NCBI GenBank assembly: GCA_050575255.1
Contig: JBNZDD010013386.1
Span: 124,001 to 188,000, forward strand
DNA from: Harriotta raleighana
Lineage: Eukaryota
Reading direction: 5' to 3'
DNA: 64,000 nt
Shown: one piece after another, positions 1 through 58,351 of the stretch
How positions within the stretch are numbered: position 1 is the first letter of the stretch
How the letters are laid out: each line of letters opens with the position of its first letter
Position numbers and translations under genes: made by a program
Notes under the pieces: model-generated
Databases searched by the model: none
The model's input: the letters and a program-made list of their open reading frames with translations, nothing else
Told to the model about the DNA's origin: nothing

Positions 1-1361
1 TTTGGTTGTCCTCTTGACACAGAAGCATATTTTTTTACTGTTGTTTTAATGTCAAATGTACAGTTACAAACCAAAGTGAATAATCCATTTATTGCTGTGG
101 TTTTCCATTTTAAGCCAAACTTTACAAAATAAATTAGACCCTAAACTGCCCGGAAAGTGGCCCCATAAATCGACGACTGTTTACATACAGTCTCAGTCGA
201 TGTCGGTGTAAGTCATAACTCAACCCTTCCAGGACAATGTCTTCGCTGCTTGTAGATTGATTCACTTCAACGGCTGAATACTCTAAACAGCTCACTTCAT
301 CTTCATAACAAAATATTTGCACTGAAACAGACCCACTATCTGGAATGTGCCTCTTCAATAGCCTTACCCAGGCAATGCTTATTGATCTGTTCATCAACCA
401 AGGACAGAGCCCTGAGTAACAGCACATGTGATATGTTGGAAGAAGAACAGTTAGCAGAGACAAATTGACCAGTATTCACCAGTCTGGTATCCAGAGCCAT
501 TTGATATGTCTGAGTGGTCATTAATGTCCAGGGATTAGGGTAGAGGACAAGATCAAACAACAAGATCCACAGGAGTGAGTGAGACCAGAACATTGTATTG
601 AGGAAACAGTTTACACTAAACAGGAATTGAATCTCATGGAAACTGGTGATAGAGAATCCATCTCTGGATCCAGTCGGTGGATTTATAGGTCTCACTGACA
701 GCAGAAATCCTTTTATATCCAGTCATAAACCCTAGCTGGATTTCTGAATTTATTTCTGGCTGCTGTGGATTAACAGCAGGTTCAGCCCGTGGGAGATCTT
801 TAGGTACCGACTATATTTATTGTTGCTTTGGTCCTTTTTGTTCTCTCCTGTTTGCAATGACTTGTGTCTGCCAAGGTTTCCCCAATGTTTGCTAATAAAC
901 TGGGACTACCCTGCACTTTAGGGCTCTGGCTTGCGATGTTAACAGGACAGAGTGTCTCTAGTGATTAGTCTGTCCTTCAAAGCCCTACTGACTAACCAGG
1001 CTGGCTGTGCTGTCATCAACAGTGTCCTGGAGCACTGTGGACCTTGTGAACAGGTAACAGCTGTTGGTATAAACTAAGTCAAGTGTCATCTGAAGGTTAC
1101 AGCCCAGTCCGAACCAAAGTTTTTGCTGTTTGATGGAGATGCCAGCCCGACAGCAGCTCCCAACTGATCTCAGGAAACACAACACAGACCAGTAATGGAG
1201 TCTGGATATATGTGGATCAGTATACCTTTGTGTTATACTAGATTAGTGCCTTTACTTACAATGCCATCAGCCAAACAAAGGTCTGCTGCTTGAGTAAAGT
1301 GCCTGACATGCAATTGTTGGGGATTTTTTGCTTTCGGATGCAATGCAGCCTCTGAGCTATT

Positions 1362-1655
1362 GATAATAATAATCTTTGCATTTGATTTAGTGCCTTGTCA
1401 CATCGCTGAGATGCAGCAGCCAATTGTGCACAGTAGTGTTTCACAAACAGTGGTGGATTGAGTGACCAAATTGTCTTATTTATTTTGAAGGGATTATTAC
1501 CCCCAGGGAGAGCAATCGGCTAAGCAACTGGGTTCATTACTGGTTTCATTACTTATTGCAAGGTAAACAGCAAGGCATGGAATGAGGAAATTTACCTGAG
1601 GTTTTTGTTATACCCAGGAATCGAACCCAGATCCACTTGTTTGCCAGTGGTCTCA
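1362..1655 (-). mobile_element. Diverged tRNA-derived SINE
   Basis: (AAT)n-ctttgcatttgat tail, gcagccaattgtgcacag core, ggaatcgaaccc B-box complement. Confidence 0.75.
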
Positions 1656-4600
1656 CCATTGCTCCAATCCTACTGTCTCCAGCCCACCGTTACCTGCCTC
1701 CTTTGGCCTCCTCTGGGTGCTGACCTCTGCCCAACAAGCTCAGAAAATTGTTGGAAAAAAAACAAAGCAAAAGAGTTTCCATTTGGCAGCGAGCTGCGGA
1801 TTCCTGATGGCTGAAAAGAGCTTAAGTGTTCCGAGAAATCTCCCCCAAAATATACAGTAAAGTCGCTTTGTTACGACAAGTAACTCTTCCAGTAGATTTA
1901 AACAGTATTATTCTTCATTGTGGAACCCAGAGATCGGGTGGGTGGGGGGGCGGAGAAACTGCTTCTGATTAATGTCAAAGATTTTAATTCCTCCCCCTCC
2001 TCCCACCCACCCCCTCCCCCTTCAGTTTATCCATTACCTGCCACACGATCTGAATTAAGATCATGTCATACCATTTTGTTATTGTTCAGGCGAGAAAGTT
2101 TAAACCTCCTCCTCTCCTCCCCTCTATTGTCAACACTCACCACAAAGGAGAAAAAGATAAGGTTTATGGATAAACAAATGTTTCAGGGGTCCACTCGGGG
2201 AGGTGGCAAAGAATGGCCACAGGTATTCAAAAAACACCCATAAACTCTAAAACAGTGTCTTTTCCCAACTCCTCATCGGAACGACAGGTTAAAGGTCAGC
2301 GAGTTTGGATAATTCCAGACGAGGAAGATTGTCATTTATTTTTCCAGAGATTCCAAGCAGTTGTTTTTAACCGAGTGGCCCAGACCTGTTAATGAGTCAG
2401 CTTCCAGAAATCACGCAACCTCTCAGATTTGAAGGGAAGGGAAAATAAGCTTCTCACTAAAACAAATATTAATTCTTCTCTATTTCCACATAATGTTGGC
2501 CCCTGTGAATTCTCACAGTAAACTCTGCTCGCAGTTAGCCATGCCCGAGTGGTAATTAGCTGAATCGGTGGGCTCGGACACGCAGAGCTAGACGGAGCTC
2601 AGTGCAATATGGTTGACATGTGTTTGGTGGGGGCTCCAGGAGTGAAACACTATTTCTTTGTCCTCAATCTGTTATTACAGGGCAGTCAGTTCTGAACGTT
2701 TTGTAATTTCATTCTGACTGTTCTATCAAAGAGTGGCCAGAAGCAACTGAGCGCTTCAGAGATGTGTAACCCAGGACCTATTGCAGAAATGTATTTAATA
2801 CACGGCAAGAAACACAGAGCGTCATGTAAATCACAATTCATATCTTCCTAACAACTTCTGTGAGTGGTTTTGTGGTGCAATCCTCAGACACGTTGTGCTA
2901 AACTAGTGTATGTATTAGTGTATGGACGAGCAATTCTGCTGATTCTCCGAGCCAATGGCTTGTGAGAATGTGAAATGAACGTGCCCACAAAGCCCGGGAT
3001 TCAAAATCAACGGCAGTACTTAAAGAGCGCAAAGGAGCTAGGTACTGTACATGGGAAGTCAAGGGGTTTAAGGAAGATGGAGGAAAAAGTAAAAAGTAAG
3101 ATTAGAAAAACAAAAGTAACTATTACAACTGTTCAACCTACCAAATAACTATTTCCTTCCTTTCCTCTTTCCCAAATTTATAGACACTGGTCCTGGCAAT
3201 CCAGAACTTGCCAGATGGTTTGAGACAATTGTGGATATTCTAGTAAAAAAAAATCAAATAAACAATGGGTGCACCAGGATTAAAACATATTTAAGGTAAG
3301 AATTAAGGGCCATCAGTAGCTTGTGAAAGTCTTCAACCTTACATACAGCTGTAAACTTAGTGTCAATGTCACATCTTCCCCAAAGAGGAGTTGCATATTC
3401 ATTAATTACTATAATCTGGGTAATCAAAAGCCAGACAATAATGTAAAAGACCTCAAACGTTACTGGTCCTAGGTTTGCTGCTCTCTAAAGCTGTGACATA
3501 TTGAGAAAACACATGTCTAATTTTACACTGAGCTGCAAAAGGATTAGAGGAACCACAAACGGGGTTGACTGAGACTCAGGAGTTGGGCTGAGATGAGGTG
3601 AATGAGAGTTTCACAGGAAGATCAGAATTTTCTTTGGTCATCCAGGTTTCTGACACATCCAGAAACCCATCCGTCTGCTTCACTGTATCCCAATGCCACT
3701 CTCTCCCCAGAGGGATGCCTCTGTCTTGCCTTACCCTGGAGAATTGGGCAAGTTTGGTTTGAAATGAAAAGCCCGAAGCAGGATTGGAGATCAGAAGAGA
3801 TTTCCTCCCCAAAGGTTAGTGGAAGAAACTCGCAGAAAAAGTAGCCGTTTCTGCGGCAACTATCACGTTCTACACCACGTGGGGTTAAGTGTCTTGTAAT
3901 AGAAAACACGTGGACAGCGAACGAGATAAACAGAACTAAGAAAATAAAGACCTCAGTCGAGTTTGTAAAGAAAAGACACATTCTTGTGCCTTCAGGAGTA
4001 CTGATCAATGTCAGCTCACTGCTGCAGCCACTCCGACTCCAGCTCGGCTCCCAGTGAGTTAGTGAATGTGGGATTGCTGAGACCCTGCGTTGTGTCTGGA
4101 GGCTGACACTTCTCAGGCTCTATCGGGTTTATCACACCCTGAATCTTGCCTGGGCCAGAACCCAGAGTCCACAGCAAGTGGCACTTTCCCAATGGTTAAA
4201 CTTAGGAGCAGAGTGTCAGAGGAGAGAAGCCTTTATAGACAAGACGGACACTCCCAAAGAAGCAACGGTTCTCTGTGTTACTCCCCGATCAGGATCAGGT
4301 CTCTTGTGCGATGCTTCATGTGTAGAAATATCTGAATGACTAGCTCATCCACTAGCAGTGCAAGCACATATCTGCAATTTCATAATATTTTAATGTAGCG
4401 GACACTTTGGTCATTATTTACACAACAGAAACTTGACAGTATATTTACTCAGACAGTTCAAAATGTACAAATGTCTTGACTGTCTGTTCTAGTGAGTTTT
4501 GGACCCTCCACTCTTCCTTGTTCGTTCCAGGCAAAGTCTTATACTGCAGGGCAACAACACACACTCAGTCATTAAGAGCTTTCTCGAGCCCTGATAGACT

Positions 4601-7029
4601 ATAGAAAAGAGGAAGTTAAACCAGAGGGAACTGAGTGAGACAAGAAGTGAAGCAAAGAGGAAAATGCTGTAAAAGAACTGTTTTTGTTTAGGCCAGTCTG
4701 GACAGCTGACAAGTGAAAACCCATCACCATGTGTAAGAGTATCCAAAAGAGATTGAGTTACACATGTATGGCACCAACAAATGGAAAAATAACTGAGTCT
4801 GGAATAGATTGCAGACACTCTCCCTGGAGAGACACATCCTAATAATGCCAGACAGTACTGTATTAGATTGGTGAGAGCCAAGGCTGAGTACGTTAGGGCA
4901 CTGCTAGAGTTCAACCGGGCAAAAACTGCTTAACTCGCCATTGACAGCACCATCCAGCAAGCTTCCCAATGCTTAACCAATGAGTTTGACCCGAATCATC
5001 AGGGGTTTGACTAGAGTCTAGACAGCCTGTTCATCAGCCTGGCTGGTGGGTCAGCATTGCCTTTGTGGCTCAGGTAATGCCACATCAAGAAGGCCACACA
5101 GGATTGAGTTGATCTGACATTTTGGTGCCAGACTTGTCACATTAGAGATCACTCGGCTCCAAGGAGATCCGGCTTAACTCCCACACAAGGAGGAGTCGCT
5201 TGTTGGTCATTTACAAAGATTATTATATCTACAGTAAGTCTGATCTGTATAAATCATATAAATTGCCTAAATCATGCATCTGCCCAAGTCCCTTTCAAGA
5301 GTTTATACTCCTCGCCAGCTTGATATAACTCAAACTTTGTACAAATGATAATAAATACATAGTCCTGATCCATACAATGTACGTGAGGTTTACTGTAGTA
5401 TTACTCCCCAGGTATTACCTGCGCACTGTAGCTTCTATGATAGATTGTAAAGGGACTAACGGGCATTGCCATCTAGATGTTTTTGTAGGATTGGGTCAAG
5501 GGGATGGGATGGAAGATGGTGAAAAGATCTTATGAAAGCACTCATTGCTTCCACAGCTGGCTTGTGTTGGATCCCTACATTATGCACAGGATCTCAGCTG
5601 TGGGAACTGTTCGTTTAGCTCACACACAACCACGTGTTCTGTCTCTCAGGCGCCCTTCATCGCTGACCTTACTTGTTCCTGGAAGGAAAATGTACAGAAA
5701 GTACAGAACAGAGCTGGGGGGAGGGGGTGGGGGGGTAGGAGGAAAAACACACATCTAATCTGAGTTAATAACAGATTAAGTAGATTCAAAATATGGGGCA
5801 TAAAGAAAGGTATTAATTGAGCAGATGTATCTTTCCCCACCTAGCCTAACACAGACACTATTCATCATGACTAACTGAATGGCTGGTATAGCAACTGATT
5901 GTTGAGAAATTCTGGCTCCCTGACTGAGGATCAGGAGAAATGTCTTAAATATGAAGTTGCTTTGCCAAGTGCAACAGGCAGTAAGTGTTACTGCCTTTTA
6001 CTGACAGAGCACTGCAGAAACGTTTAAACAGAACCTCTCAAGGATAGTATTAACCTATATATGGGTTTGTGAGCTGCCATTTTCTCATATTTTGCAGTTG
6101 GTAACATTTCACAGCTGGAATATAGTCTATGAACACTTGAAACAAAGAGCAGATCAGAGATCTAAATCTTCTGCCCCTACATTGACAGTGTGTGTTTTGG
6201 GGGGGTGTGGGTGGGCGAGGACTTTCCCACTGGCTTCTAGTTATATCTTCCCAGACGAGGAACACTATTTTATTATATTCTGTGCAATTTGTCCTTTTAA
6301 ACCCCTGTCCAAGCTCCTGTCAATTGTACTTAAAGACTGTTGGCAGCCAACGTGCATCAATACCATCCACGGGTGGGGTTTCACCAGGTGTCGGTGTGGC
6401 ACCGAAGATATCCAGCCACTTTTGGAAAGGGTTTATTATTATTATTCTGCTCAACAATTGTTCCTTTAAATGCTGTTACTGATGATGATTGGACAGTAGC
6501 TGTGCCCGTTCATTGTGATTAAAATCACTAAATGCTGATAAGATTTTTAAAAACTCAACAAGTTTAAAGATTCAGTGAGGCTGATGGGATCCTTTCAGTC
6601 TATCAGGATCTGATGAAGTATCAGTGATTCAATAGCTGTTTATAATACACATGGACAGTTATTGGGAGAGCGCATTTTCCAGTTTCATTACCAATAATAG
6701 AACATACGAAAGTAGGAATAACAGTTAGGAATATCAGTTGCCCATTTCCTCCACACAATGTGTTGTCTCATTGATGTACTTTGGTTTTAAATCTATGCCC
6801 TTTACAACAACAACAACAACATTACATTTGTACAAGGCCTTTCATGTCAGGAGGACGTCCCAAGGCGTTGTTTTCATGGTATCAAATCTGAGTTAATAAT
6901 AAATTAAGTAGATTCAAAATACGAGGCATATAGAAAGGTATTAATCTGTTAATATCTTAAATCTGTTTTCATGGTAAATCAAATTGCCATATTGTCCATC
7001 CCTCTCAGAATTATAAATGTACTCCATTG

Positions 7030-7245
7030 TGGAGTCCGGTAGCTCAGGTTAGAGCATTTGCCTTGCAAGCAAGAGACTTGGGTTCATTTCCAGACAGGAT
7101 GAAACATTGGGCAAGTTTCCTTACTAGATATGACTGATAATAATCCCTCAGATTAAAAATAATAATAATTGGTCATTTCAATCCATGACTGTTTGTGGGG
7201 ACGCTCCTGTGCTCAATTGGCTGCCGTGTTTCGCCCACAAACATT
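7030..7245 (+). mobile_element. tRNA-derived SINE, 3'-truncated
   Basis: gtagctcaggttagagcatttgccttgcaagc head; caattggctgccgtgtttcgcccacaaa core. Confidence 0.82.
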
Positions 7246-7828
7246 TCAAATTTGGCCCCACTGGATATTTGTTCAATGGTCTCAAGATGATACCTGTGAT
7301 CTGATCAGCTGATTTGCTAAAGCATCTTCTTGTTTGGGTCTAACATGAGAAATTTCATCAGTAAAAGTTACCAGAAAATCCACATTTTTTGTGTGTGGTA
7401 CATTGGGTGTTTGTGGGACACTTAGCAAATCAGCTGTCATGTTCACGTACAAAATACATAGTTAATAAACGTTAAATCATGTGAAGCACTTTGAGATGTG
7501 AAATCAACATACCAATATCAATAATTCTCTATCAAATGCACAGATTATTAGTTTAAATAAAGCTATGACAGAAAAATACAATACAAAATTACATGGGTTA
7601 TTTTAAAAAGGAATTAGTTCAGTTGTTTATAATTTTCGGTTACTAGTTGCCAAGAAATTCTTAGTGAATTGTAATATTTTGTAATGGTCAGGAAAAATGT
7701 GGAAAATGTGATAGGGTTAGCTATAGTAAACTGAGCTCAGGAAGTATGCTGGATATTTACGGTAGAGCAGATTTTGTTGCAGTTTGCCAGGACAATGCTG
7801 CAAATTGATCCCTTATTTTATGACATCC

Positions 7829-8157
7829 ATAATAATAATAATAACAATCCTTGCATTTGATATAGTGCTTTTCACATCTTCTAGACGTCTCAAAGCACTT
7901 CACAGAATATACTGTAAAGTGAATTGATATTTGTGTATATTTGTGGGCGAAATGTGGCAGCCAATTGTGCACAGCAGCGTCCCCCACAAACAGTCGTGGA
8001 TTGAAATGACCAATTTTATTATTGTGGTTTTTATTTTGGACGGATTATTATTAGGTGTGTAAAGTAAGGAAACTTGCCCAAAGTTTCGCCCTGACCTGCC
8101 TGGATTCGAACACTGGTCTCACACTTGTAAGGCGAGTGCTCTAACCACTGAGCTACA
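7829..8157 (-). mobile_element. Full-length tRNA-derived SINE, same family
   Basis: Reverse complement aligns with 17474-17815, including A/B boxes and the tail. Confidence 0.88.
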
Positions 8158-9741
8158 TAAATAATGCAGACTGCCCCCAATAAACACATGTTTTTATTTT
8201 TTAAATTGTGTTCATCATGCTTTAACATGGTTCTGCAACTCATTAAATGCAAAGGTTAAAACAATCTGAAAGAACTCCACCAGTGATTGCATTAATTATG
8301 TCCTCAACCCAAACAGGAAGAGATTATAAACTTACTTTGAATCTACATAAGTCTCAGGATTGTTCCTTCTGAATGCACGGAGATATTACTGTAAATATCT
8401 CTGTCAAACCGAGGTACAATTAAGAACTGTTAAGAAAATAGTTCAAACATATTAGATTTACGGATAAACAATAGAACTCAGATGAAATACTTCAGTTTCT
8501 TTCAAAACAGAGTATCGAGAAACTGCCTCTCCCAAAGCTCAACATTGACTTGCATCGATTCCTACAGAATAGTTGTGTAACATTTATCAAAGTGTTGGAC
8601 AGTTAAAGCTTTGCACCCGAGCTGGAGAGGTGGAGGCAGGGATGGTGGTTATAGGAAGGTTGAAGAGGAAGGTCGAAGAGACAGGCCTTGAAAGAGGAAA
8701 AGGAGGGGAAGGGAAGGGACTGTGGGATGGAGTTCCAAAGGGCAGGGGCAGTGATGGTCAGGGCAGGCCCAGGTTTGAACGTTAGGGAAAAATTGGTTTC
8801 AGTGTCCAGCATTCCAGCTGCTGGTCTCTAACCTGTGACCCAAGTAGAGATGTGGATGCTGTAGCCCAGGTGCAATGTGCCCATGTTTGTTCAACCTGAG
8901 AAGTTACACACGAGGCTCTGTGGAGCTTGGAACCGTATCCCAGTTGAAGTATCAAAATGAGTTAACAGTTTTGGGAGAGGAGGGGAGAAATTTTGGAAGC
9001 AGCGAATTGTTGAGAAAAAAAACTGTATGTAAAAGTACTGCGTTAAGTTCGGTATCTAATTCATCACTGAAGTGTCTGCCCCTGAAACATCAACAACAGT
9101 CTAGAAAAGTATAAATATTTCTCACTCTGAGGCCACATGAGGAGTTCAGCAAAGAAAGTTCAGAATAAACATATTGTTGGCGTCTCCAGCAGGAAGAGAG
9201 GAACAGGGGTCACAGACTCCACTGCGGGATGGGATGCTGGGAATGTAGAGAGATAACAGGATTGTAAATGTTTTATTGTTCTCAGAACACCTCTGGGCTC
9301 TGCATCACTTTGCGTTATGATCCTATTTTACAATATCCTATAATCCTATATTGTAGGAGGGAGAGATGGGAATGCGTGGTGGGATATGTATGAACATACA
9401 GTAAATCCAAACATGTCATTTCTACTACATTCCCATCCTCCACGACTATAGCAAACCCTCTGATCCAGGCATTGTGTGGTGGGAAATCAGAGAGAGAGAA
9501 AGACTCACTTCTCTTCCGGATCACCTCCAACAGACACTACCTTAAACTCAATTACTGACAAAAGATTTAGGCAAACAATTTTATTAGTAATTTGCAATCT
9601 TCAAGAGTCCACTTTTCAATGCTGATCTGCATATGATTTTGAACAAAAGCAGGCAAGTAGGTAGGTAGCTGAGAACAACAACAAAATTACACTTATATAG
9701 TCCTTTCACGTCAGGAGGACGTCCCAAAGAACAGGCTTAGC

Positions 9742-9763
9742 GTGTGTGTGTGTGTGTGTGTGT
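9742..9763. repeat. (GT)n microsatellite
   Basis: About 11 GT units. Confidence 0.9.
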
Positions 9764-10834
9764 ATTTCAGAATTGGTTTGCAACCAAATCTATTAAAACA
9801 GCAGAATATCGCACAACGACAGGCGTAATCATAATACGCCTGATGAGAAACACCTCCACAAAGAAGCGACATTCAGTAACAAAGGTTGAACGTGGACAGT
9901 CATTGAATCAACAAAGCTAATGAAATATCGTCTCTATAAGATGAAAGAGTTTATTGTAACCTTCTCAGTTCATGAATTTGATATTTGCAGTTTGGAGCTG
10001 ACGCCTTCAAAAACACTGAAGAACTGGAGAGGGTTCAGTGAAGAGCAATAAGGATAATTTCAGGGCTGCGATCGGAGGAAAGGGGTCACAAGATTCACCA
10101 TGTTCTTATGGTAAAGAAGAGAATATTTCCAGAGATTATAATACAAGAGAACACAAAAATTACATAATCTGGGGCTTTTGACCTAGTGAAAAGAATTGGA
10201 TGTTTTACATACAAGTTGTATCCCTATCGGGGCTTACATTAAACATTAAATAAGTTTCTACTTGGAGGGAAATCTTTCCACTCCAAAACCGTAGATATTG
10301 TAGAACAGATTCCTCAAAAAATAACAGCCCGGCTGGATTCAAAGGGGGAAGAAAGATATTGCCTGACAAACGTTGATGTTACTGATGGAGATAGTAACAC
10401 TCAAGTTCATTTACACTTTCAGGACATATTTTTCCAAGTTCCCGTCCTATAAAAGGAGTATCCCAGTTTAATAGATTGAGGGTCAAATATATCAAAGGAA
10501 CCTCGTGAAACATTGGATAGGCAGATGAAGGAGATTGATAATTAAACTTTTTTTGTGTTACACTATATCTCTGGCTTCATATTCTAAAAACAAAGTCTCA
10601 TCGTGTGATAGGAAGTTGTTAACTCAAAACCAGAATGTGACTCTCGGGGTAATAACACAGAAAGATTGACTGTGACAGTGGAATTTATTAATTCCTGCAA
10701 ACAAAACCCAAACAGAACAGATCTGACACGTTTGTAAATTTAGACGCATTATAAATGAGACGTTTGCAACGTTGTTCAGGCTTTTGACAAATTTTGAGTC
10801 ACGTAAATCAGATGAGTAAACTGAGAATCACCAT

Positions 10835-11392
10835 CAACAACAACAACATAATTAGGTTTCTGCGGCATCTTTCACGTCAGGACGTCCTAAGGCACTGGAC
10901 AGTTTCAGACCTGACCTGGGGTGGGGTTCGGGGAGGGTGGAGGAATAGGGAGGGGATTTGGGGTGACCGATGGGACAGTCAATCAGGAGGGTCTTGCGGC
11001 AGGAATTGAAGGAAGCCAGGGAGGGGGGTGGAGGAGGGATGGAATTCCAAAGGTTAGGGGTGGAGTGACTGAAGGCTCGCCTGCCAACGCTGGGGTAGAA
11101 GGGTCAGGGGATGTGGAGCAGACTGGAATCCACTGAGCAGAGGGAGCAGTCAGGTCAGGTTGGTAGGGGATTAGGAGGTCACAGATGTAGGGTGCGATGA
11201 GGCTGTGAAGGGCTTTGAAGGTAAGGACCAGGATCTTGAATTGAATCCTCTGGATGATGCGGAGCCAATGGAGTGGAGTGAGGATGGAGAGATGGGGTCG
11301 CGGAACTTGGGAGAGGTAGAGGACATGGGCCGCAGATTTGTGGAAGATGTGTAGCTGGTCGAGAGAGGAACTGGGAAGGCCACAAGCCTTCG
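10835..11392 (-). mobile_element. L2-type LINE 3' fragment
   Basis: (CAA)n tail, conserved tttcacgtcaggacgtcc terminus, remnants such as SLHPHSTPLAP and RIQFKILVL on the minus strand. Confidence 0.82.
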
Positions 11393-12026
11393 AACATCAA
11401 ACAGAACAACCTGAATTTAGCATTTGCCTTTTTCTGTGCGTTACATGGAGCTGGAGGCACATCTATAGCTACAATGCCAGCTGGCTCCAGAGAGCCCTCA
11501 AGTGCATTGAGGCACGTCGCAGGGTTAAAGCCAATGGACCTGTGTTCTTTTGGCCGTCTGGGTAAGGAGCATCCATTTTTCTGTGGCAATCTAATGTGTT
11601 GCTCTCACACTGGGCCAAACCAGCAACAATTGAGACACAGAATCAAACTCATCAACATGGAGAACTACTTTGGAACATCAGAGTGTCTGTCAGATACTGT
11701 CCTCACAACCGTGTCTGCGCCAGTCCGGATCTGTCATTGTAAATTCCATTCCCTACCTCCACACTGAAAATAGACTGCAGCAGCAGCCAGAGTAATGAGC
11801 TGAAGACATGGAGCTGCCAGGGAGACAAGGTGGGCCAAGTACCCCAGTTCCAAAATAAATGCGTGAGGGAGAAATTTAAATTATGATCTTCAGATAGAAC
11901 CTCCCTGAGCTACAGTCAAATGTACAGTTACAATGAGCTCTCACAGGCTAGGTTGATTCACAAATTTGCCCAAACATACAGTCACTCCACTTTGTGATTC
12001 CTTGTTTGTTCTCATAATAATGGAGT

Positions 12027-21410: not shown

Positions 21411-21570
21411 GATCCAAATCATCCACTAGTGAAACCAACAAAGTCAACCCAAGAATGGAGTTAATATCTTTAAACGTTGGTCAGAAACAAGATCCAAATC
21501 ATCCACTAGTGAAACCAACAAAGTCAACCCAAGAATGGAGTTAATATCTTTAAACGTTGGTCAGAAACAA
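21411..21570. repeat. Perfect 80-bp tandem duplication
   Basis: gatccaaatc...tcagaaacaa at 21411-21490 and 21491-21570. Confidence 0.95.
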
Positions 21571-23854: not shown

Positions 23855-24414
23855 CTAAATAAATATTAGAAAGCAGCTGCATAAATTAAATGCAACACAT
23901 GCACTTCACAGTTACATTGATATAGCATTGATATAACTGCTAGTAGATAACAGTGTAAAAGCAGCCACACTTGTGGGACATATGTGCATGTGGCCTCCAG
24001 GAAGGTGGAAGGCGAACTAGATGGACCTTGGTCTTTTCTCGTCTGGCATTTCTTTCTTATGTTCTTATACTGTTATTGCTTTTAAACCTCAGGCCGTTTG
24101 AGCCCAAATATTTTGATCAGTTGTTCTAAAAAGGCAGAGAAAACGAAATGTCAAGTTTACATTTCAAAACAAAGAGAAGAGTTTTAATTTAATTTCAACA
24201 GTGAAGGTGAACTGTGTTTGTATTTGGATTTGTGGAAGAAACCAATTTCAGTGACAACTTTGGCAAATGCTAAAATGGAGGCCAGAAGGTTATACAGTGA
24301 CAGATTAAGTCCCAGAGTTGTCAAAGATCTTCTAGCAAATTATCTCATCTTTTCTTGTATCACATGTAGAAATACCAGATATGATCAGAAACTGTTGGCT
24401 TGTGCAGTACTTAC

Positions 24415-24516
24415 AACATCCATCTTCTCCTCCTCTTTGTCTTTTCCCTTTTCTTTCTCCTTTTCTTTCTCCTTCTTCTTTGCTTTGGCTGTGATCGACA
24501 GGACAGCAGTGGAAAC
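24415..24516 (-). CDS. PSMD1: PSMD1 coding exon (~exon 22), KEKE-rich
   Basis: VSTAVLSITAKAKKKEKEKEKEKGKDKEEEKMDV; 102 nt; acceptor ctgcag, donor GTAAGT. Confidence 0.95.
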
Positions 24517-25397
24517 CTGCAGGTTAAGAATCAAACGTCAGATCTAAATTACGAACGTAAACAAGGGAATGAATGGCTTTAGTGCAATTAGCTGTACAAC
24601 AACAAGAACAACAACTTGGATTCATATAGCGTCCTCCACGCTTGCTGGAGCAAGCATACTAGTTAGGATCCAGCAAACTAAATCTTAACAGTAGGAAAAC
24701 CATCGACTAGAAATTGAAAAATAGTTACAATTATCTATCCATTTAATTCCCTCTCCCCCCCCCGTACCACCCCCCAAATGTCTCTCCTGTAACATATGTT
24801 TTCCCAGCATTAATAGGGAAAGGACAGTTTCTATTTGCTTCCTTTGCAGACTGTTCATAAGTGTTTTTCAAAGACTTGAGATGATCATCCAGGTAACCAC
24901 TGGAAAACTAGTGGGAACTGAAGGACATTTTGGGAACTGAAGGACTTCATTCCCTTTGCTGTCGAATGAAATGCCGTTGTGCTGTGAAAGGGTTATCTGA
25001 CACAAGGGGTTGAGGTCTGCTCTTGGGTTCCAGGAGCTGTGGGATGTCGGGTTTGAAATAATCTGTGTGGTTCAGTTTGCTCTTTTCTAGAGTCAAATTA
25101 ATTCCGTTATTTTACAGAGAACAAATCCACTCCAATCTGAGCAGGGAACACAATACACTGAATAAACGATTAATGACTCCTGTATCCCATTGAGTAAAGA
25201 CTGATGTGGTACTATGGACCACCAGCTCTCACTTCTCTCAAGTTGGCAATGGTGCTGTCTCCTGGGCTGGAGCAGCAGATTACAACCTTTTCTGTTTATC
25301 TCAAATGTGTACAATGCAAAGAAGATATTTATTTAGGGTAATTAACCAAGAAATGTAAAAGCATCGCTTGACAACAAGCATCACAGCATCTCCATTA

Positions 25398-26381
25398 ACC
25401 AATTTATGATCCACTTTCCCCGATTTATAAACCTATTACTGTTAAGATTTGAAGCCACAATAAGAACAAAGTATTTAATCTTTCCAGATCAAAAGAGCAG
25501 CTCGAGGTTTATTATGTGGGAGCTGAAGTTCAAGTAGAAATGAGGACGACAAGTTGTAAGAAACACAATGACACGCGATACAGACCTTCTCTTTCTCTCT
25601 TTCCTTTGGCACCTCCAGCGCGGGAGGGTAGGCAAACGTTGATGCTTTGCAGTTTGATCGGTACTGGACTTTCGGCATCTACAACACAAAGTGAATATTA
25701 AAAACATGTCAAATACTTTTTGGCTTCGGAAATCAAACAGCTACCACTTGAAATCTAGATCTAGGGGAACATTTTGGAATTATTTGATCTGATTTCGACA
25801 TTTAATTACACAACACAGAAGCCATACAAATAACTAATGTGTAAAGTTTGTGTGAATCAAATTATTGACAACTAAAATATTGAGAGGTTGCACTGAAAGA
25901 TACTGTGATTTAATACTCACACAGCTAGTTTTCAGTATCTGATGAGTGTATGTGTGCACACATGTGCGTTCGTATGTATGCATATGTACCCTATTTACAC
26001 ATTAATTCTCTCATTTCATCAGAGAGTAGCCTCTGGTAGCACAACAGCATCACAACCAACTTCAATATTTATTGAAACAGAATTATTTTCCAATTATTCA
26101 GGACCAACAGCTTTGAATCATAGTGACAAGGACCACATTCTGCTGACAAAGAAGTTTCATTCATTTTTGGGTGATCGGCTCAGGGCACATCTTCTGGGGT
26201 TAATAGATCAAATGTTGAAGCCACCAAGTTTCCATCGTAAAGTAAATACATATTATGTGCAATCCCCTGGAGTATGTGGGGATAGGACAGATCATCAAGA
26301 TTAAATACTTTGTTCTTATTGTGGCTTCAAATCTTAACAGTAATAGGTTTATAAATCGGGGAAAGTGGATCATAAATTGGT
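25398..26381. repeat. Perfect 85-bp inverted repeat pair (25398-25482 / 26297-26381)
   Basis: Base-by-base reverse-complement identity; 814-nt spacer containing the PSMD1 exon 25586-25678. Confidence 0.95.
25586..25678 (-). CDS. PSMD1: PSMD1 coding exon (~exon 21), symmetric 93 nt
   Basis: [31 protein letters not shown]; phase 0/0; acceptor gttgtag, donor AAG|GTCTGT. Confidence 0.96.
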
Positions 26382-26516
26382 AGTATTGAAACAGCTAGTA
26401 TTGAAATAGTACATTGTCAGGGAACTCGAGTCGATGTTCATCTCTAGGTGAATGCTCTGGATGTGCAAGTAAGTAAGTTTTCCTGTACAAACATACCAGC
26501 TCTCAACTGTATTTTA

Positions 26517-26765
<249 letters not shown>

Positions 26766-26844
26766 TCACAAGATCAGACCCACCATCATCACCAACCCTT
26801 CCCCCATGGTGACATCAGCCGCAGAAACAAGGTTAACTAAGACA

Positions 26845-27540
26845 TGAATGTAGATGACATCCAACTCCATCTTTCTGCCTCTACCCTCGATTCCAGGATC
26901 ACTCTCTGTCTGACATCTGGAATGAGAGCTAACTTTCTATAGTTGAATATCAACAAGACTGAGAGCCACCTGATTGGCTCGTGCCAGCGCCTTCACACAT
27001 CAGGCATCGGCAGCATCAACCTCCATGGTTGCACACTCATCAAGCCAGTCAGGAACCTAAGTGTCTTGTTCAATCCTCAACAGTCTTTCCTCGCCCACAT
27101 CCAAGTCATGACCCGCTCTGCCATCCCCCACCTCCGCAATATTGCCCGACTCCGCATTACTTCACCCCTGAGGCCGCTGACTCTCATTCATGCCTTCATT
27201 ACATCTAGGCCCAACTACGCCCTGCTTGAGACAACTTTCAGGTGCGGGGTTGTGATGTGGACAAGTGATAGGAATGTAGCCTTTATTTTAATTCACCAGT
27301 CAAAGCAGATAAAAACAACCTGTATTTTTCTTTAGGTATTCCAATTCAATTGTCTAATTTTAGCCACTCTGCCTGTGCTCTCGGGGAATTCTGTCCCTCT
27401 GACTTGCCCCCTTCCACCCCATCTTCAAAGTCCAACTCAAGACCTACCTCTTTGGCCATGCTTTTGAACATCTTTCTCCTACCCACCCCCAGCTCAGGTA
27501 CATATCCATTTGCGTGAAGCGCTTTTAAGATAAAGCATAT
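26845..27540 (+). mobile_element. Degenerate L2-type LINE fragment (RT C-terminus and 3' end, interrupted)
   Basis: DDIQL motif, then LNINKTE...RNLSVLF...HLRNIARLR...LIHAFITSR with stops and frameshifts. Confidence 0.85.
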
Positions 27541-34857: not shown

Positions 34858-35755
34858 NNNNNNNNNNNNNNNNNNNNNNNNNNNNNNNNNNNNNNNNNNN
34901 NNNNNNNNNNNNNNNNNNNNNNNNNNNNNNNNNNNNNNNNNNNNNNNNNNNNNNNNNNNNNNNNNNNNNNNNNNNNNNNNNNNNNNNNNNNNNNNNNNNN
35001 NNNNNNNNNNNNNNNNNNNNNNNNNNNNNNNNNNNNNNNNNNNNNNNNNNNNNNNNNNNNNNNNNNNNNNNNNNNNNNNNNNNNNNNNNNNNNNNNNNNN
35101 NNNNNNNNNNNNNNNNNNNNNNNNNNNNNNNNNNNNNNNNNNNNNNNNNNNNNNNNNNNNNNNNNNNNNNNNNNNNNNNNNNNNNNNNNNNNNNNNNNNN
35201 NNNNNNNNNNNNNNNNNNNNNNNNNNNNNNNNNNNNNNNNNNNNNNNNNNNNNNNNNNNNNNNNNNNNNNNNNNNNNNNNNNNNNNNNNNNNNNNNNNNN
35301 NNNNNNNNNNNNNNNNNNNNNNNNNNNNNNNNNNNNNNNNNNNNNNNNNNNNNNNNNNNNNNNNNNNNNNNNNNNNNNNNNNNNNNNNNNNNNNNNNNNN
35401 NNNNNNNNNNNNNNNNNNNNNNNNNNNNNNNNNNNNNNNNNNNNNNNNNNNNNNNNNNNNNNNNNNNNNNNNNNNNNNNNNNNNNNNNNNNNNNNNNNNN
35501 NNNNNNNNNNNNNNNNNNNNNNNNNNNNNNNNNNNNNNNNNNNNNNNNNNNNNNNNNNNNNNNNNNNNNNNNNNNNNNNNNNNNNNNNNNNNNNNNNNNN
35601 NNNNNNNNNNNNNNNNNNNNNNNNNNNNNNNNNNNNNNNNNNNNNNNNNNNNNNNNNNNNNNNNNNNNNNNNNNNNNNNNNNNNNNNNNNNNNNNNNNNN
35701 NNNNNNNNNNNNNNNNNNNNNNNNNNNNNNNNNNNNNNNNNNNNNNNNNNNNNNN
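34858..35755. other. Assembly gap (898 N)
   Basis: Run of N inside a PSMD1 intron; the flanking exons join in frame, so no coding exon is missing. Confidence 0.99.
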
Positions 35756-39560: not shown

Positions 39561-39723
39561 GATGGTTTAGTACAATGTAATCATAGCTAAGCCTGTCCCT
39601 TACCTCAAAGCCACATATTTGCACCTCAAGGATCCTTATAACCTTGAACGATCCTTGAGGTGCAAATATGTGGCTTTGAGGTAAGGGACAGGCTTAGCTA
39701 TGATTACATTGTTCTAAACCATC
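39561..39723. repeat. Hairpin with 74-bp arms (1 mismatch) and a 15-nt loop
   Basis: 39561-39634 is the reverse complement of 39650-39723 except T39571/T39713. Confidence 0.95.
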
Positions 39724-40802: not shown

Positions 40803-41256
40803 AGCAGCCAAGATGATTTCCTGACACAGCAACGCAAACACCTACTCATTTTGCTGACTGATGACTGGATTTATGATAACTATTCTGGAGAATGTTTGAA
40901 AAGTGCCAGACTGACTGAGGCAAGAGGAATTGCAGAGCCTGCAGCGGCGTGCAGTATATTTAATTAGAAAACTGCATAACTTAATGGGAAATGTCGAGAG
41001 CAGAGAAATTCAGAGAAGCTGCAAGCAGAGTGCTGTGGTGATAAACTCCTGGCTCTTCTCTCATAAACGAGCTGGGAACGGTTCTGGCTCTGCCGGACAA
41101 GCGCAATAAAGATACCACAGCCCGCCCGAGAGACAAGAAGGCAAGGCAAGATGCAAAGTGAGAAATTAATATTCACCACTGCAGCACTACCAAAAGCCGG
41201 GAGGCAAGCTTTAAATTAAGCATCCCAGAGTGTAGACATGCCACTCTGACAAATGC

Positions 41257-41758
41257 ATGGCGGCAGTAGTCTATGAGATCGGTTTTCAGACCATGTTGCC
41301 TGATCCCCTCGAGTCTCCAAAACCAACCAGAGGGACAGCTATCAACCTTCAGAATACCATGTCTGGTTCAGCTGGGAACATCTTGTCCGACTCACCGGAT
41401 TCCACCAGATCTCTGGCCATTGACAGGATGCAGGAGTCTCTCAACCAGCTATTCAACACCTCCGGAATCAACACAACCCTCTATCTGACAATTACAGAAG
41501 AGTCCAAATTCCCTCCACTTCTGGACTCGGGATTTTTAAAAGGCGAGCAGTTGCACAAGAATGGGCTGCAATGGGCAGCACTTCTGATTCTAATGCTGAT
41601 CATACCCACAATCGGAGGAAATATACTTGTTATTTTAGCAGTGTCTCTGGAGAAGAAACTCCAGAATGCCACTAACTACTTTCTCATGTCACTCGCGGCA
41701 GCGGACATGTTGGTTGGATTGCTGGTGATGCCGGTCGCTCTTCTAAACATTCTATTCA
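41257..41758 (+). CDS. HTR2B: 5-hydroxytryptamine receptor 2B, coding exon 1 (N-terminus, TM1-TM2)
   Basis: [56 protein letters not shown] matches 5-HT2B TM1/TM2; donor A|GTAAGT, phase 1; the start codon is less certain than the exon end. Confidence 0.93.
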
Positions 41759-42279
41759 GTAAGTCTCATTCAATATTACTTTGTTGAACATGATAGGATT
41801 GCAGCTGGAAACCACGTACTAATCGAGTCATGAATCCCAAATTGTGTTTCAATCATATAGTGAGTCCTTTATATGAAACACAACCTGTCGAAGTGAATTA
41901 TACCTTTGGAATAAGAATCTAAAGCATTGTATTCAGGAAACTGAACCAGGAGATGATTTTCTTGTTCAGGTGTTGCTCATTTAAACTACTTAAAATCACT
42001 CACCATTCCTTCCCAAAAGAACTGCTTATCCATCTTTTATTAAATTTTGCACCTTGATTTTTTTTCTTCTAAAGAACTTAAATGTTGGAAATTTTGTTCA
42101 AAATTGTTACCACATATTTAAGATTTTGAGATGTTTTGACAATATAAACAGGAAATAATTATTTCCACTATCTGGTAAATTGATAGCTACAGCACATAGA
42201 TATAAAATACTGTACATTAACAAATAAGCAAAGCGAGAAAAGTTGGGAGAAATTTTGTTATACTGGGGTTTGTTGTGAT

Positions 42280-48071: not shown

Positions 48072-48455
48072 ATTGCTCAGTGGTTAGAGCACTCGCCTGG
48101 CAAGCAAGAGACCTGGGTTCGATTCCTGGCAGGGTGAAACCGTGGTCAAGTTTCCTTACTGCACACTTGATAATAATCCCTCAAGAAAAAAATAGCGATT
48201 TGGTCACTGAATCCATGTATGTTTGTGGGATAGTCATGTGCGCAATTGGCTGCCACGTTTTGCCCACTAAATACACAGTCAATTATTCTGTGAAGCACTT
48301 TGAGAAATCTAGACGACGTGAAAATGACAGTTTAAATAAAAGTGCTTGAATTATGTCTGAGGTGAAAAAATTTAATTGTGATATTATAATAATTGTGGTA
48401 TTATAATACCACAATTACTTGCATTTGATATTGCAATATCAAATGCAAGTATTAT
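48072..48455 (+). mobile_element. tRNA-derived SINE with its 3' end disrupted by a palindrome
   Basis: A box ttgctcagtgg, B box ggttcgattcc, family core; terminal atatcaaatgcaag displaced to about 48436. Confidence 0.85.
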
Positions 48456-48537
48456 AATACCACAATTATTATAATATCACAATTAAATTTTTTCACCTCA
48501 GACATAATTCAAGCACTTTTATTTAAACTGTCATTTT
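48321..48537. repeat. 217-bp near-perfect palindrome with no central spacer
   Basis: Centre gatattg|caatatc at 48433/48434; the left arm carries 9 extra nt. Confidence 0.95.
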
Positions 48538-50702: not shown

Positions 50703-50912
50703 CAATCAATCAATCAATCAATAAATACTTACATTTATTTACAGTAGCGCCTTTCATGTAGGGAGGACGTCCCAAGGCGCTGAACAGTTAGGTAGGGGCG
50801 GTGGGGGAGAGGGGTCAGGGAAAGGAGAGTCGGAGAATTGACTATATTTGTGGGCGAAACGCGGCATCCAAATTACACACCGCAGTGTACCACAAACAGT
50901 CATGGAAGTGAA
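50703..50912 (-). mobile_element. SINE core fused to an L2-type tail, ending (TTGA)n
   Basis: Same architecture as 36005-36200 on the opposite strand. Confidence 0.78.
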
Positions 50913-50994
50913 TACAAATGTTATGGAACAAAGAGTATTATTGTAATCTTCACCAGCATCACCACTCGTACTAATCAATTAATCTGCCTTTCAG

Positions 50995-51195
50995 ACTCCG
51001 AGTGGGTTTTACTCTCTGAGCTGTGTCCTATCTGGATCTTCCTGGATATCCTTCTATCCACAGCCTCCATCATGCACCTGTGTGCAATCTCACTGGACCG
51101 TTACATTGCTATTAAAAAGCCAATCCATCACAGCCGCTTCAACTCAAGGGCCAAGGTTCTTGTTAAGATCACTGTGGTGTGGCTCATCTCAATCG
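50995..51195 (+). CDS. HTR2B: HTR2B coding exon 2 (TM3-TM4)
   Basis: [35 protein letters not shown]...[10 protein letters not shown](G), with D3.32 and DRY; 201 nt, phase 1/1; acceptor ctttcag; only the G|GCAAGT donor keeps frame at the homologous position. Confidence 0.95.
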
Positions 51196-51624
51196 GCAAG
51201 TACTGGATTCCTGCCTCTGAACATGTATCTCAGCAACACAGCCCAAAATTACACACCCACGCAACAACAATCCTAAAGCAAACACAACATATAACCATAG
51301 AAATCTATGATTTAGATATTTGAAAGAAAATCATCACACCAACACCAGTCATGCAAATCATTCGAAAGAACTGGGGGGAGGGAAGAAGTTACATTCCTCT
51401 CTAATCAAACAAGTCCAACCCACATTTCAGGTATTTTAAGCAATTTTAGTGATTGAGAGAGATTTTACTAATATACATGTAGACTAAATGCAACCCTTTT
51501 ATCCTGGAACCTTGGTCAGTTCCCATTGGCTCTCAGTTACTGACTGCGGACAGATATCACTCAATAGGGTTTCATTCATGCTTCAAACTCCTACCCAATT
51601 TACAATAATCTAATACAAACACAA

Positions 51625-51800: not shown

Positions 51801-51941
51801 TTTAAAAAATATTTAACAGACTGATAGCCGCCAGTGTAGAAGTGTTACACAGCCAAGGCATTGCTTACATGACCAGCATCAATAGTCATTTTAAAACAGC
51901 TTATAAACAATTAATATATTCTAAATAATTGTCTTATTCAG

Positions 51942-52813
51942 GCATTGCTGTTCCCATTCCCATCAAAGGCCTGCAGGATAAAACAAACACCTTCATGAAC
52001 AAATCCTGCATCCTCAAAATTGATAAATTCAAAGATTTTATCATCTTCGGATCAATGGCTGCGTTTTTCATTCCCCTCGCCATCATGATCGTAATTTACT
52101 TCCTGACAATTCAAGTGCTGAGGAAGAAAGCCTATCTGATCAAAGCCAAGTCACCCCAACACTTCAACTGGGCCACTGTCTCAACAGTGTTTCAATCCAA
52201 TACGTCTCCGGAGAAGGTGGCAATGCTAAATGGTTCCCACAAGGACAGGACACTTTCGCTCTCCATTGACAACATGCCCCTCAGAAGACTCTCTACCTTG
52301 GGCAAAAAGTCTATGCAGAGCATCAGCAATGAACAGAGAGCGTCCAAAGTTTTAGGAATTGTATTCCTCCTGTTTTTGGTCATGTGGTGCCCTTTTTTTG
52401 TAACAAACGTTACTTCTGCGCTCTGCATGAGCTGTGACCCAGAACTCATTGGAACACTGATGGAAATCTTTGTCTGGGTGGGTTATGTCTCCTCAGGGGT
52501 CAATCCTCTTGTCTACACTCTATTCAATAAGACCTTCCGCCAGGCTTTCTGCCGCTACATTACATGCAACTATGCAAGAAGTAAACCAGTGAAAATGCTA
52601 AGAAAATGCTCCAGTCGGATCTCCTTTAGAACTTCCATGAACGATAATTCCAGGTTCTTCATGAGACACAATGGGCTGAACCCAATGTATCCGAGTCCTC
52701 TGCGACTGCGCAGATCTGCTCCTATTCAAACCACATCATCAGTCATGTTAGACACATTACTGCTCGCCGAGAATGAAATGGAGAAAGCAGAGGAGGCCGT
52801 GAGCTATGTGTAA
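51942..52813 (+). CDS. HTR2B: HTR2B coding exon 3 (ECL2 to C-terminus)
   Basis: GIAVPIP...FGSMAAFFIPL...NEQRASKVLGIVF...MWCPFF...SSGVNPLVYTLFNKTFR...VSYV* (PDZ-binding end typical of 5-HT2B); total CDS 1575 nt = 524 aa. Confidence 0.97.
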
Positions 52814-55576: not shown

Positions 55577-58351
55577 AAAAAGCTACACATCACTCTCTCG
55601 ATAGTCTGCTTCACAATAAGGATCGAAGGCAGTGAGATAAATGGCACTTTGCAAAGATGAAAATGAATGCTGACAGGAAACTGTCCAACAGGATGTAAAC
55701 TCCACAAATTATCAACCTTTCCAATTTACGAAAAATAAACTTTTTAGTAACTGATTTAATCACTTTGTTTATCTAGTCACAGATCATCTGCACAATTTCT
55801 GAATTCGGCTACAAATCTACTGAACAGGCAGTCCAGAGATTTCCACAGATTTCTTGGACAAGCAATGTAATTCTTTGATAAAATGTAATCCTATATGGGT
55901 GGTATAAAATCATCCTTTCACACATGAAACTCAAAGCAGGGCAATAATTCCAAATCAAATTTACAGGGTAATCAGTTACACCAAATGCAATGTTTTACTA
56001 TCAAACGTCTCCTGTAAATAATTTCAACACATTACGCTCTATTGGGGAGTGCTACACGTGGTATATAATGCTAACTAGACATCAAAACATTACACAAAAC
56101 TAGGAAGAACTACTTCTCAATCAATGAATCTACCTACCACTAAATTGAACAATGTTTAATGCGTAAAAGTCCAGAGAGAGGGAGGATACTAGGTTCAGAT
56201 CTCTCTGACCATGTCATTTAGGCATAATATTCTATTCCTTGTTTCCAGTTTTACAGTTCCACCAACATTGGCAGGTTCCTGGTCACTATTCAAGTCAGAA
56301 TCCATACAATTGGGAAATGCGGGAGGGACATTTTAGCTGATTGATATCTTGTCTACATAGCATTTGGTAAACTTGAAAGGAATCAGGAGCAGGAAACAGG
56401 TCTATGTTCCCCTCGCTCTATGGTTTGGGGCAAGGAGGGGTGCAGTGTACCCTACTGTCGTATCTGTAGCATAGCTCGAAGAACTCAGCGTTGTTCAGGA
56501 ATTGTACTTCCCCTCTGAATGGCTCATAAGTACAATACACCAGTAAATCAACAAAATAATTTCATCAGTGACAAGTAATTGAAATCAGTACTTTAAGAGG
56601 GTAGCAAAGATGTGAAACAGATTGCCCAGGAAGGTAGTGGAGGCGGATAGCATTGATAATATCAAGAAGGAATTAATAGGATTGATTGTGGTGGGGAGAA
56701 TGGGGCAAACAAGATAATGAGGAGAGGTATTTAGAAACCAGAACGAACCAGACAGACCTCAATGGTTGCTTCTGCACTTGCACATTCCTGTGTTGCAAAG
56801 CTGATTTACCACAACCTGTCTGGATCACAGTAGACTTCTTATGAAATTAAAATACCAGTTTCATTTTTTGGGTACTATTTTTCCCAAAGTATAGCATTAG
56901 ATTTTCCAAACGGACTTTCCATCTATGGGATATTAAGCTTTTGGCCTGTTGGGGCTCTTGTTCNAAAAAGCTACACATCACTCTCTCGATAGTCTGCTTC
57001 ACAATAAGGATCGAAGGCAGTGAGATAAATGGCACTTTGCAAAGATGAAAATGAATGCTGACAGGAAACTGTCCAACAGGATGTAAACTCCACAAATTAT
57101 CAACCTTTCCAATTTACGAAAAATAAACTTTTTAGTAACTGATTTAATCACTTTGTTTATCTAGTCACAGATCATCTGCACAATTTCTGAATTCGGCTAC
57201 AAATCTACTGAACAGGCAGTCCAGAGATTTCCACAGATTTCTTGGACAAGCAATGTAATTCTTTGATAAAATGTAATCCTATATGGGTGGTATAAAATCA
57301 TCCTTTCACACATGAAACTCAAAGCAGGGCAATAATTCCAAATCAAATTTACAGGGTAATCAGTTACACCAAATGCAATGTTTTACTATCAAACGTCTCC
57401 TGTAAATAATTTCAACACATTACGCTCTATTGGGGAGTGCTACACGTGGTATATAATGCTAACTAGACATCAAAACATTACACAAAACTAGGAAGAACTA
57501 CTTCTCAATCAATGAATCTACCTACCACTAAATTGAACAATGTTTAATGCGTAAAAGTCCAGAGAGAGGGAGGATACTAGGTTCAGATCTCTCTGACCAT
57601 GTCATTTAGGCATAATATTCTATTCCTTGTTTCCAGTTTTACAGTTCCACCAACATTGGCAGGTTCCTGGTCACTATTCAAGTCAGAATCCATACAATTG
57701 GGAAATGCGGGAGGGACATTTTAGCTGATTGATATCTTGTCTACATAGCATTTGGTAAACTTGAAAGGAATCAGGAGCAGGAAACAGGTCTATGTTCCCC
57801 TCGCTCTATGGTTTGGGGCAAGGAGGGGTGCAGTGTACCCTACTGTCGTATCTGTAGCATAGCTCGAAGAACTCAGCGTTGTTCAGGAATTGTACTTCCC
57901 CTCTGAATGGCTCATAAGTACAATACACCAGTAAATCAACAAAATAATTTCATCAGTGACAAGTAATTGAAATCAGTACTTTAAGAGGGTAGCAAAGATG
58001 TGAAACAGATTGCCCAGGAAGGTAGTGGAGGCGGATAGCATTGATAATATCAAGAAGGAATTAATAGGATTGATTGTGGTGGGGAGAATGGGGCAAACAA
58101 GATAATGAGGAGAGGTATTTAGAAACCAGAACGAACCAGACAGACCTCAATGGTTGCTTCTGCACTTGCACATTCCTGTGTTACAAAGCTGATTTACCAC
58201 AACCTGTCTGGATCACAGTAGACTTCTTATGAAATTAAAATACCAGTTTCATTTTTTGGGTACTATTTTTCCCAAAGTATAGCATTAGATTTTCCAAACG
58301 GACTTTCCATCTATGGGATATTAAGCTTTTGGCCTGTTGGGGCTCTTGTTC
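55577..58351. repeat. 1387-bp tandem duplication separated by one N (likely assembly artefact)
   Basis: 55577-56963 and 56965-58351; one difference noticed (G56795 / A58183). Confidence 0.9.

Follow-up and report, generated by a model that had tools for sequence, protein, structure and literature searches.

A perfect 85-bp inverted pair encloses a single exon of PSMD1, the gene for the proteasome subunit RPN2, in a 64,000-nt stretch of Harriotta raleighana DNA (the window), which holds the 3′ half of this gene on the minus strand. We consider it likely that the pair is a scar of repair or template switching with a stable predicted stem, one that would cause at most low-level skipping of the exon and some A-to-I editing, and that it is no regulated switch. 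The two copies, at 25398-25482 and 26297-26381, proved on recomputation to be complementary at 85 of 85 positions across a spacer of 814 nt, as the first-pass annotation had claimed. The 85-nt downstream-intron arm (25398-25482) lies 103 nt from the donor of the exon, and the upstream-intron arm (26297-26381; 85 nt, 29% GC) lies 618 nt from its acceptor. The loop thus holds 618 nt of the upstream intron, the exon itself (25678-25586 in the direction of the gene) and 103 nt of the downstream intron. Re-reading the sequence also bore out that the exon is 93 nt long with phase 0/0 and that the upstream intron, which follows the exon at 26568-26737, has a GC donor (AAG/GCAAGT, at 26567). The next exon downstream, 102 nt at 24415-24516, would supply the acceptor of any skipping event. 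The donor of the enclosed exon (AAG/GTCTGTAT) had been called weak, but it is only moderately so, since it agrees with the U1 consensus in eight of 11 places.

Chance is ruled out as the source of the pair, the expected number of 85-nt matches within 5 kb of each other in the window being ~1e-41; a further match of the arm, 14 nt at 24680-24693, is at about the chance level. Because inverted pairs in this genome mostly consist of repeats, we then considered whether the arms might be the inverted ends of a transposon or a dispersed repeat present twice. A sample of the genome outside the window, made up of 160 stretches no longer than 10 kb (1.52 Mb free of N; each scanned singly, so that pairs crossing a border were missed), yielded 72 exact inverted pairs of at least 28 nt within 5 kb, of which 62 had more than two other hits in the sample. 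The arm sequence from PSMD1, however, matched the 1.10-Gb genome at two places, both at this locus, in a search that passes over very common words. Its read depth is that of single-copy sequence, the arms enclose a native exon with its introns, and a search for a target-site duplication outside the pair found none. An origin from a transposon or dispersed repeat is therefore scarcely credible, and the specific case of inverted termini from a DNA transposon or MITE was rejected on the two genomic copies and the single-copy depth. An inversion of the segment between the arms was likewise rejected, as the enclosed exon still reads in the direction of the gene.

The first-pass annotation had named raw reads that support both copies as a point on which its claim depended. 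Four DNA runs from two studies, some possibly from the source sample, were mapped onto 24300-26900. Read depth over the arms was 0-5 per run, whereas two true repeats within the mapped region reached hundreds. A contig from X1 (26262-26416) covers the upstream copy from end to end, extends 35 nt past it in both directions and agrees with the assembly throughout. A second X1 contig (25275-25425) crosses only the outer edge of the downstream copy and reaches 28 nt into it, short of the 31 nt of our bridging rule. Direct support for the upstream copy was thus obtained, whereas for the downstream copy only the outer edge was crossed and the inner edge was not bridged; raw X8 reads gave depth in the bins of both arms. 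No joint or gap was seen at the arms in the mapped runs, whose depth was too low to rule on a second allele. The read support is thin (depth 1-5, with X1 or X6-X8 perhaps being the source sample), and the window does contain a tandem duplication split by a single N, which is typical of contig overlap (55577-58352; 1,388 nt, 1,386 of them identical, with the N at 56964; probably a contig-overlap artefact). Both points speak for an assembly artefact in which one copy is absent from the animal. Against it stand the error-free X1 contig over the upstream copy and its flanks, the outer edge of the downstream copy in another contig, the X8 raw-read depth in both arms and the origin of the runs in two studies. 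We conclude that the pair is probably no assembly error and regard the artefact as highly improbable. The window also contains an 898-nt gap of N at 34858-35755.

The two copies differ in their surroundings. The flanks of the downstream arm are not unusual, and this arm is likely the template. The upstream arm adjoins a patchwork junction at 26381-26410, which consists of an 11-nt local duplication (26381-26391 repeated at 26396-26406, the small repeat that had been noticed beside this copy) and overlapping pieces of 9-11 nt that match sites within 650 nt (25735, 25921, 26070 and 26531). Local matches cover 29 of 35 nt of this flank, a value reached by 1.4% of real windows from the region and 0.08% of shuffled windows, and 0, 13 and 23 nt of the other three flanks; the statistic was chosen post hoc, it concerns a single flank among four, and the pieces have a core in common. 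The junction gives good, not decisive, support to the view that the upstream copy is likely the derived one. No empty site was recovered for the PSMD1 pair in this genome, there being no repeat around either copy, and the direction of copying therefore rests on the junction statistic. The suggestion that the pair is a templated duplication with the 26297 copy derived held up, given the patchwork flank and the presence of the same class of pairs elsewhere in the genome.

These features point to a locally templated inverted insertion, an origin that we hold to be very probable. One arm repeats, exactly and in inverted orientation, a sequence close by that has no further copy in the genome, and, on the post hoc statistic, the junction carries short local duplications from several templates. 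In the mechanism that we propose, a break near 26381 would have been filled by microhomology-primed synthesis, which would first have used short stretches nearby as templates and then, on the opposite strand, an 85-nt template lying ~0.9 kb off. Two described processes, microhomology-mediated templated insertion in the germ line (MMB-TI) and the SD-MMEJ or polymerase theta insertions, resemble the PSMD1 pair in producing an inverted copy of nearby sequence and a multi-piece junction (PMC8421209; PMC7407515). Both are present as germline variation, a further likeness. In people, 33 of 103 and 26 of 99 germline templated insertions were classed as complex, with several templates (PMC8421209), and synthesis-dependent end joining (SD-MMEJ) likewise leaves multi-piece junctions (PMC7407515). 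In contrast to the PSMD1 template, which lies 814 nt away, those sought in the MMB-TI survey were within 100 bp only (PMC8421209).

The same kind of event is visible elsewhere in this genome. We defined the class as exact inverted pairs of at least 28 nt, within 5 kb, with a spacer of at least 100 nt and no more than two other hits in the sample, a pair being called unique within the 1.59-Mb sample only. Of the ten sampled pairs that are not repeat pairs, two are short-loop hairpins without other hits and eight are low-copy pairs of this class (51, 50, 40, 34, 34, 32, 28 and 28 nt). Their density of 5.3 per Mb extrapolates to ~5,800 per genome (95% range 2,500-11,400), and the three of at least 40 nt extrapolate to ~2,200 (450-6,300). 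The PSMD1 pair stands at the long end of this class, since no low-copy pair of at least 85 nt was found in 1.52 Mb (upper bound 2.4 per Mb). For two of the eight, the empty site is visible in other copies of the repeat that was interrupted. At L082:5047-5097, 51 nt replace 16 nt inside a known repeat with microhomology of 3 and 4 nt (13 of 28 paired hits), and at L104:7024-7063, 40 nt replace 10 nt inside a known repeat with microhomology at one end, 5 nt long (19 of 22 paired hits). These empty sites establish that templated inverted insertion, from 0.4-1.5 kb away, occurs in this germ line. A third pair, L074, has a repeat segment of the same length at the site rather than an insertion, and for the other five an empty site was sought and none was found; L089 (50 nt), L107, L122, L043 and L139 are further candidates for templated inverted insertion. 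With roughly one exon per 5 kb, as an order of magnitude, an exon would fall by chance into about one in ten of these loops, which would amount to some hundreds per genome.

The 25-kb intron of PSMD1 contains two further fold-back structures. One is a hairpin at 48321-48537 with perfect arms of 89 nt and a 39-nt loop, and the other a hairpin at 39561-39723 with 77-nt arms at 97% identity (63 nt perfect) and a 9-nt loop. Neither had other hits in the 1.59-Mb sample, and elsewhere no single-copy perfect arm of at least 60 nt was found in 1.52 Mb. Inverted copying may have a local hot spot in PSMD1, or the two hairpins may be products of assembly. The same intron carries a serotonin receptor gene on the plus strand, antisense to PSMD1 (41236-41787, 50796-51323 and 51929-52813), the last exon of which has 5-HT2B as its best match among solved structures (E 2e-91); in mammals, HTR2B is nested in PSMD1. 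Other PSMD1 introns contain an exact 80-nt tandem duplication (21411-21570) and a 15-nt near-tandem duplication (24912-24945).

The stem itself is predicted to be very stable, as the first-pass annotation had supposed. The arms were fully paired in both the minimum-energy and the centroid predictions, with a predicted duplex energy of -138.5 kcal/mol at 37 C and -207.7 kcal/mol at 4 C, and the single arms fold only weakly (-2.4 and -9.9 kcal/mol). The arms contain 31 and 29 adenosines. When the downstream arm was blocked in the calculation, the mean unpaired probability of the exon, its donor, the acceptor region and the GC donor shifted by no more than 0.05. Occlusion of splice sites by the stem was therefore rejected, the predicted pairing of the splice signals being the same with and without the arm, and the computed stem leaves splice sites, branch region and exon uncovered. 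Any effect on splicing would thus have to act through loop-out geometry and timing, because the stem hides no signal: the arms would pair around the exon at about -138 kcal/mol and leave the splice signals clear. Back-splicing of a single 93-nt exon would probably be inefficient. The idea that the pair forms a splicing switch found no support, as there is no sign of regulation or of conserved arms, the predicted duplex leaves the pairing of the splice signals as it was, pairs of this kind appear to be common (hundreds around exons by our estimate) and the known skipped protein models come from far lineages.

In anatomy, with arms in both introns flanking one exon and a stable predicted stem, the pair is on this modeling like a TBXT-type loop-out. 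The closest parallel is the engineered mouse allele Tbxt-insRCS2, in which a 220-bp piece of intron 6 was placed backwards in intron 5 at a CRISPR cut; with the resulting perfect pair around exon 6, the skipped transcript was more abundant than the full-length form (PMC10901737). Both Tbxt-insRCS2 and PSMD1 have a perfect inverted pair around one exon, formed by a unique piece of the downstream intron that lies as reverse complement in the upstream intron ~1 kb off (PMC10901737). They differ in that Tbxt-insRCS2 is engineered, has 220-bp arms, and has been shown to cause skipping, with tails ~10% shorter, whereas the PSMD1 pair is natural and has 85-bp arms. The inverted Alu pair of human TBXT likewise straddles a short exon and leaves the splice sites uncovered, but Alu arms are ~300 nt, imperfect and transposon-derived, whereas those of PSMD1 are shorter, perfect and of unique sequence (PMC13019944; PMC13019027). 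Exon-straddling pairs of unique sequence are a category already known, generally unique elements making up 4.69% of the pairs predicted in human (PMC13019944).

These precedents lend some weight to a stronger outcome, in which the same accidental insertion would loop the exon out in at least 20% of transcripts, perhaps dependent on tissue or temperature, and so produce a real RPN2 isoform that lacks 31 residues, as a counterpart in nature to Tbxt-insRCS2. The PSMD1 stem is perfect over 85 bp and gains stability in the cold (predicted -138 kcal/mol at 37 C and -208 kcal/mol at 4 C) with little competing self-structure, one arm lies only 103 nt from the donor, and the exon is in frame with a moderately weak donor. 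The GC donor upstream may also slow the removal of its intron. This donor is, to judge from protein comparison, not general among animals: in 34 of 36 read-through proteins a V, which corresponds to a GT-type donor, stands where this PSMD1 intron has GC (26566-26567). It does not favour skipping by itself, because inclusion and skipping both make use of it. Annotated models from seven species skip the exon, and Tbxt-insRCS2 (PMC10901737) sets a precedent. In addition, deletion of one inverted Alu lowered skipping in seven of eight reporters, by ~1 to >40 PSI (PMC13019944). A sizeable effect is still conceivable because Tbxt-insRCS2 and these reporters show large shifts. However, the PSMD1 arm has 85 nt compared with 220-297 nt in the Tbxt alleles, and among human exons with flanking inverted Alus the stability of the stem is nearly the same for skippable and constitutive ones (d = -0.12; PMC13019027). 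The closest protein models, P0002 and P0121, both include the exon, although they are models only and perhaps from related species. The segment, moreover, is length-invariant across eukaryotes. Taken together, we consider skipping at this level unlikely, and the still broader claim, that the insertion forces substantial skipping of the exon for RPN2 residues 797-827 and that hundreds of like scars make lineage-specific isoforms independently of transposons, is rather doubtful.

Our preference for a scar of small effect depends mainly on what the exon encodes. Comparison with human PSMD1 confirmed the earlier proposal that the exon equals residues 797-827, which lie within the RPN2_C domain; the protein encoded by the upstream exon is 100% identical to shark PSMD1 and 89-96% identical to that of other vertebrates. 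P0002 and P0121 group apart from sharks and rays; P0002 has the 93-nt exon and lacks the peptide of the next one, probably a quirk of the gene model. Across 54 further homologues, which range from fungi to mammals, the segment has 31 residues in 52 (one has 32 and one was not anchored), and 23 of its 31 residues are invariant in 25 vertebrates. Skipped forms lose positions 1-39 of the RPN2_C profile, and their score drops from 155 to 89 bits. AlphaFold2 models of the inclusion and skipped forms had pLDDT <50 over the whole C-terminal region, and a search of the PDB with the 31-residue exon peptide returned only seven vertebrate chains and no yeast Rpn2. On this comparative evidence, strong skipping would likely cost functional RPN2, with the harm from loss of residues 797-827 judged from conservation. 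As RPN2 is an essential proteasome subunit and the exon encodes a part of it that does not vary in length, we would expect selection to remove alleles with strong skipping, so that an allele that has persisted would probably be small in effect.

Proteins that lack exactly residues 797-827 do exist as models. Among the best 120 of 701 proteins, 80 have the segment, four lack exactly this part and 36 continue into other sequence; three more without exactly the segment were found among 76 further cluster members. The seven come from five mammals (Microtus, Canis, Neovison, Catagonus and Enhydra) and two teleosts (Salvelinus alpinus and Chanos) and share an identical junction, which agrees with the statement in the first-pass annotation that a form without this segment exists, with the qualification that they are gene models and may be partly projected from a human isoform. 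A human PSMD1 isoform without residues 797-827, which we take to exist, was not found among the 40 of 880 cluster members examined, nor was a further skipped representative among the 120 listed of 335. Of the 15 shark and ray proteins listed from 28, 13 have the segment, two stop short and none is a skipped model. These annotated isoforms would use the same junction as a PSMD1 skip in Harriotta, but they are models only and include no cartilaginous fish. In the literature, no title or abstract was found on skipping of PSMD1 797-827 or on a natural templated insertion that causes skipping, and PSMD1 is absent from the text-format supplements of PMC13019944 (three files) and PMC13019027 (one file).

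The presence of the skipped form in the annotation of both mammals and teleosts could also be read as a sign that the pair is an ancient RNA structure under selection, with a role in regulating the splicing of PSMD1, whose perfect match has been maintained by selection or by conversion of one arm to the other. Zero mismatches in 85 nt would allow an age of up to 9-35 million years at assumed rates of 2-0.5e-9 per site and year. The sharp, undecayed ends, the repair-type junction and the genome-wide class of like pairs argue against such a structure, as does the fact that regulatory stems are usually short and imperfect, and we consider it very unlikely.

If the PSMD1 pair is a scar only, it is one of a few thousand in this genome and of minor weight by itself, and its value is as a record that a cartilaginous-fish germ line commonly undergoes templated inverted insertion from distances of 0.2-2 kb. 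If skipping were true, the pair would be a clean natural case in which a repair accident produced a splicing isoform of an essential proteasome subunit without a transposon, and the genome-wide set of pairs would offer a ready test of the length of perfect stem needed to loop out an exon.
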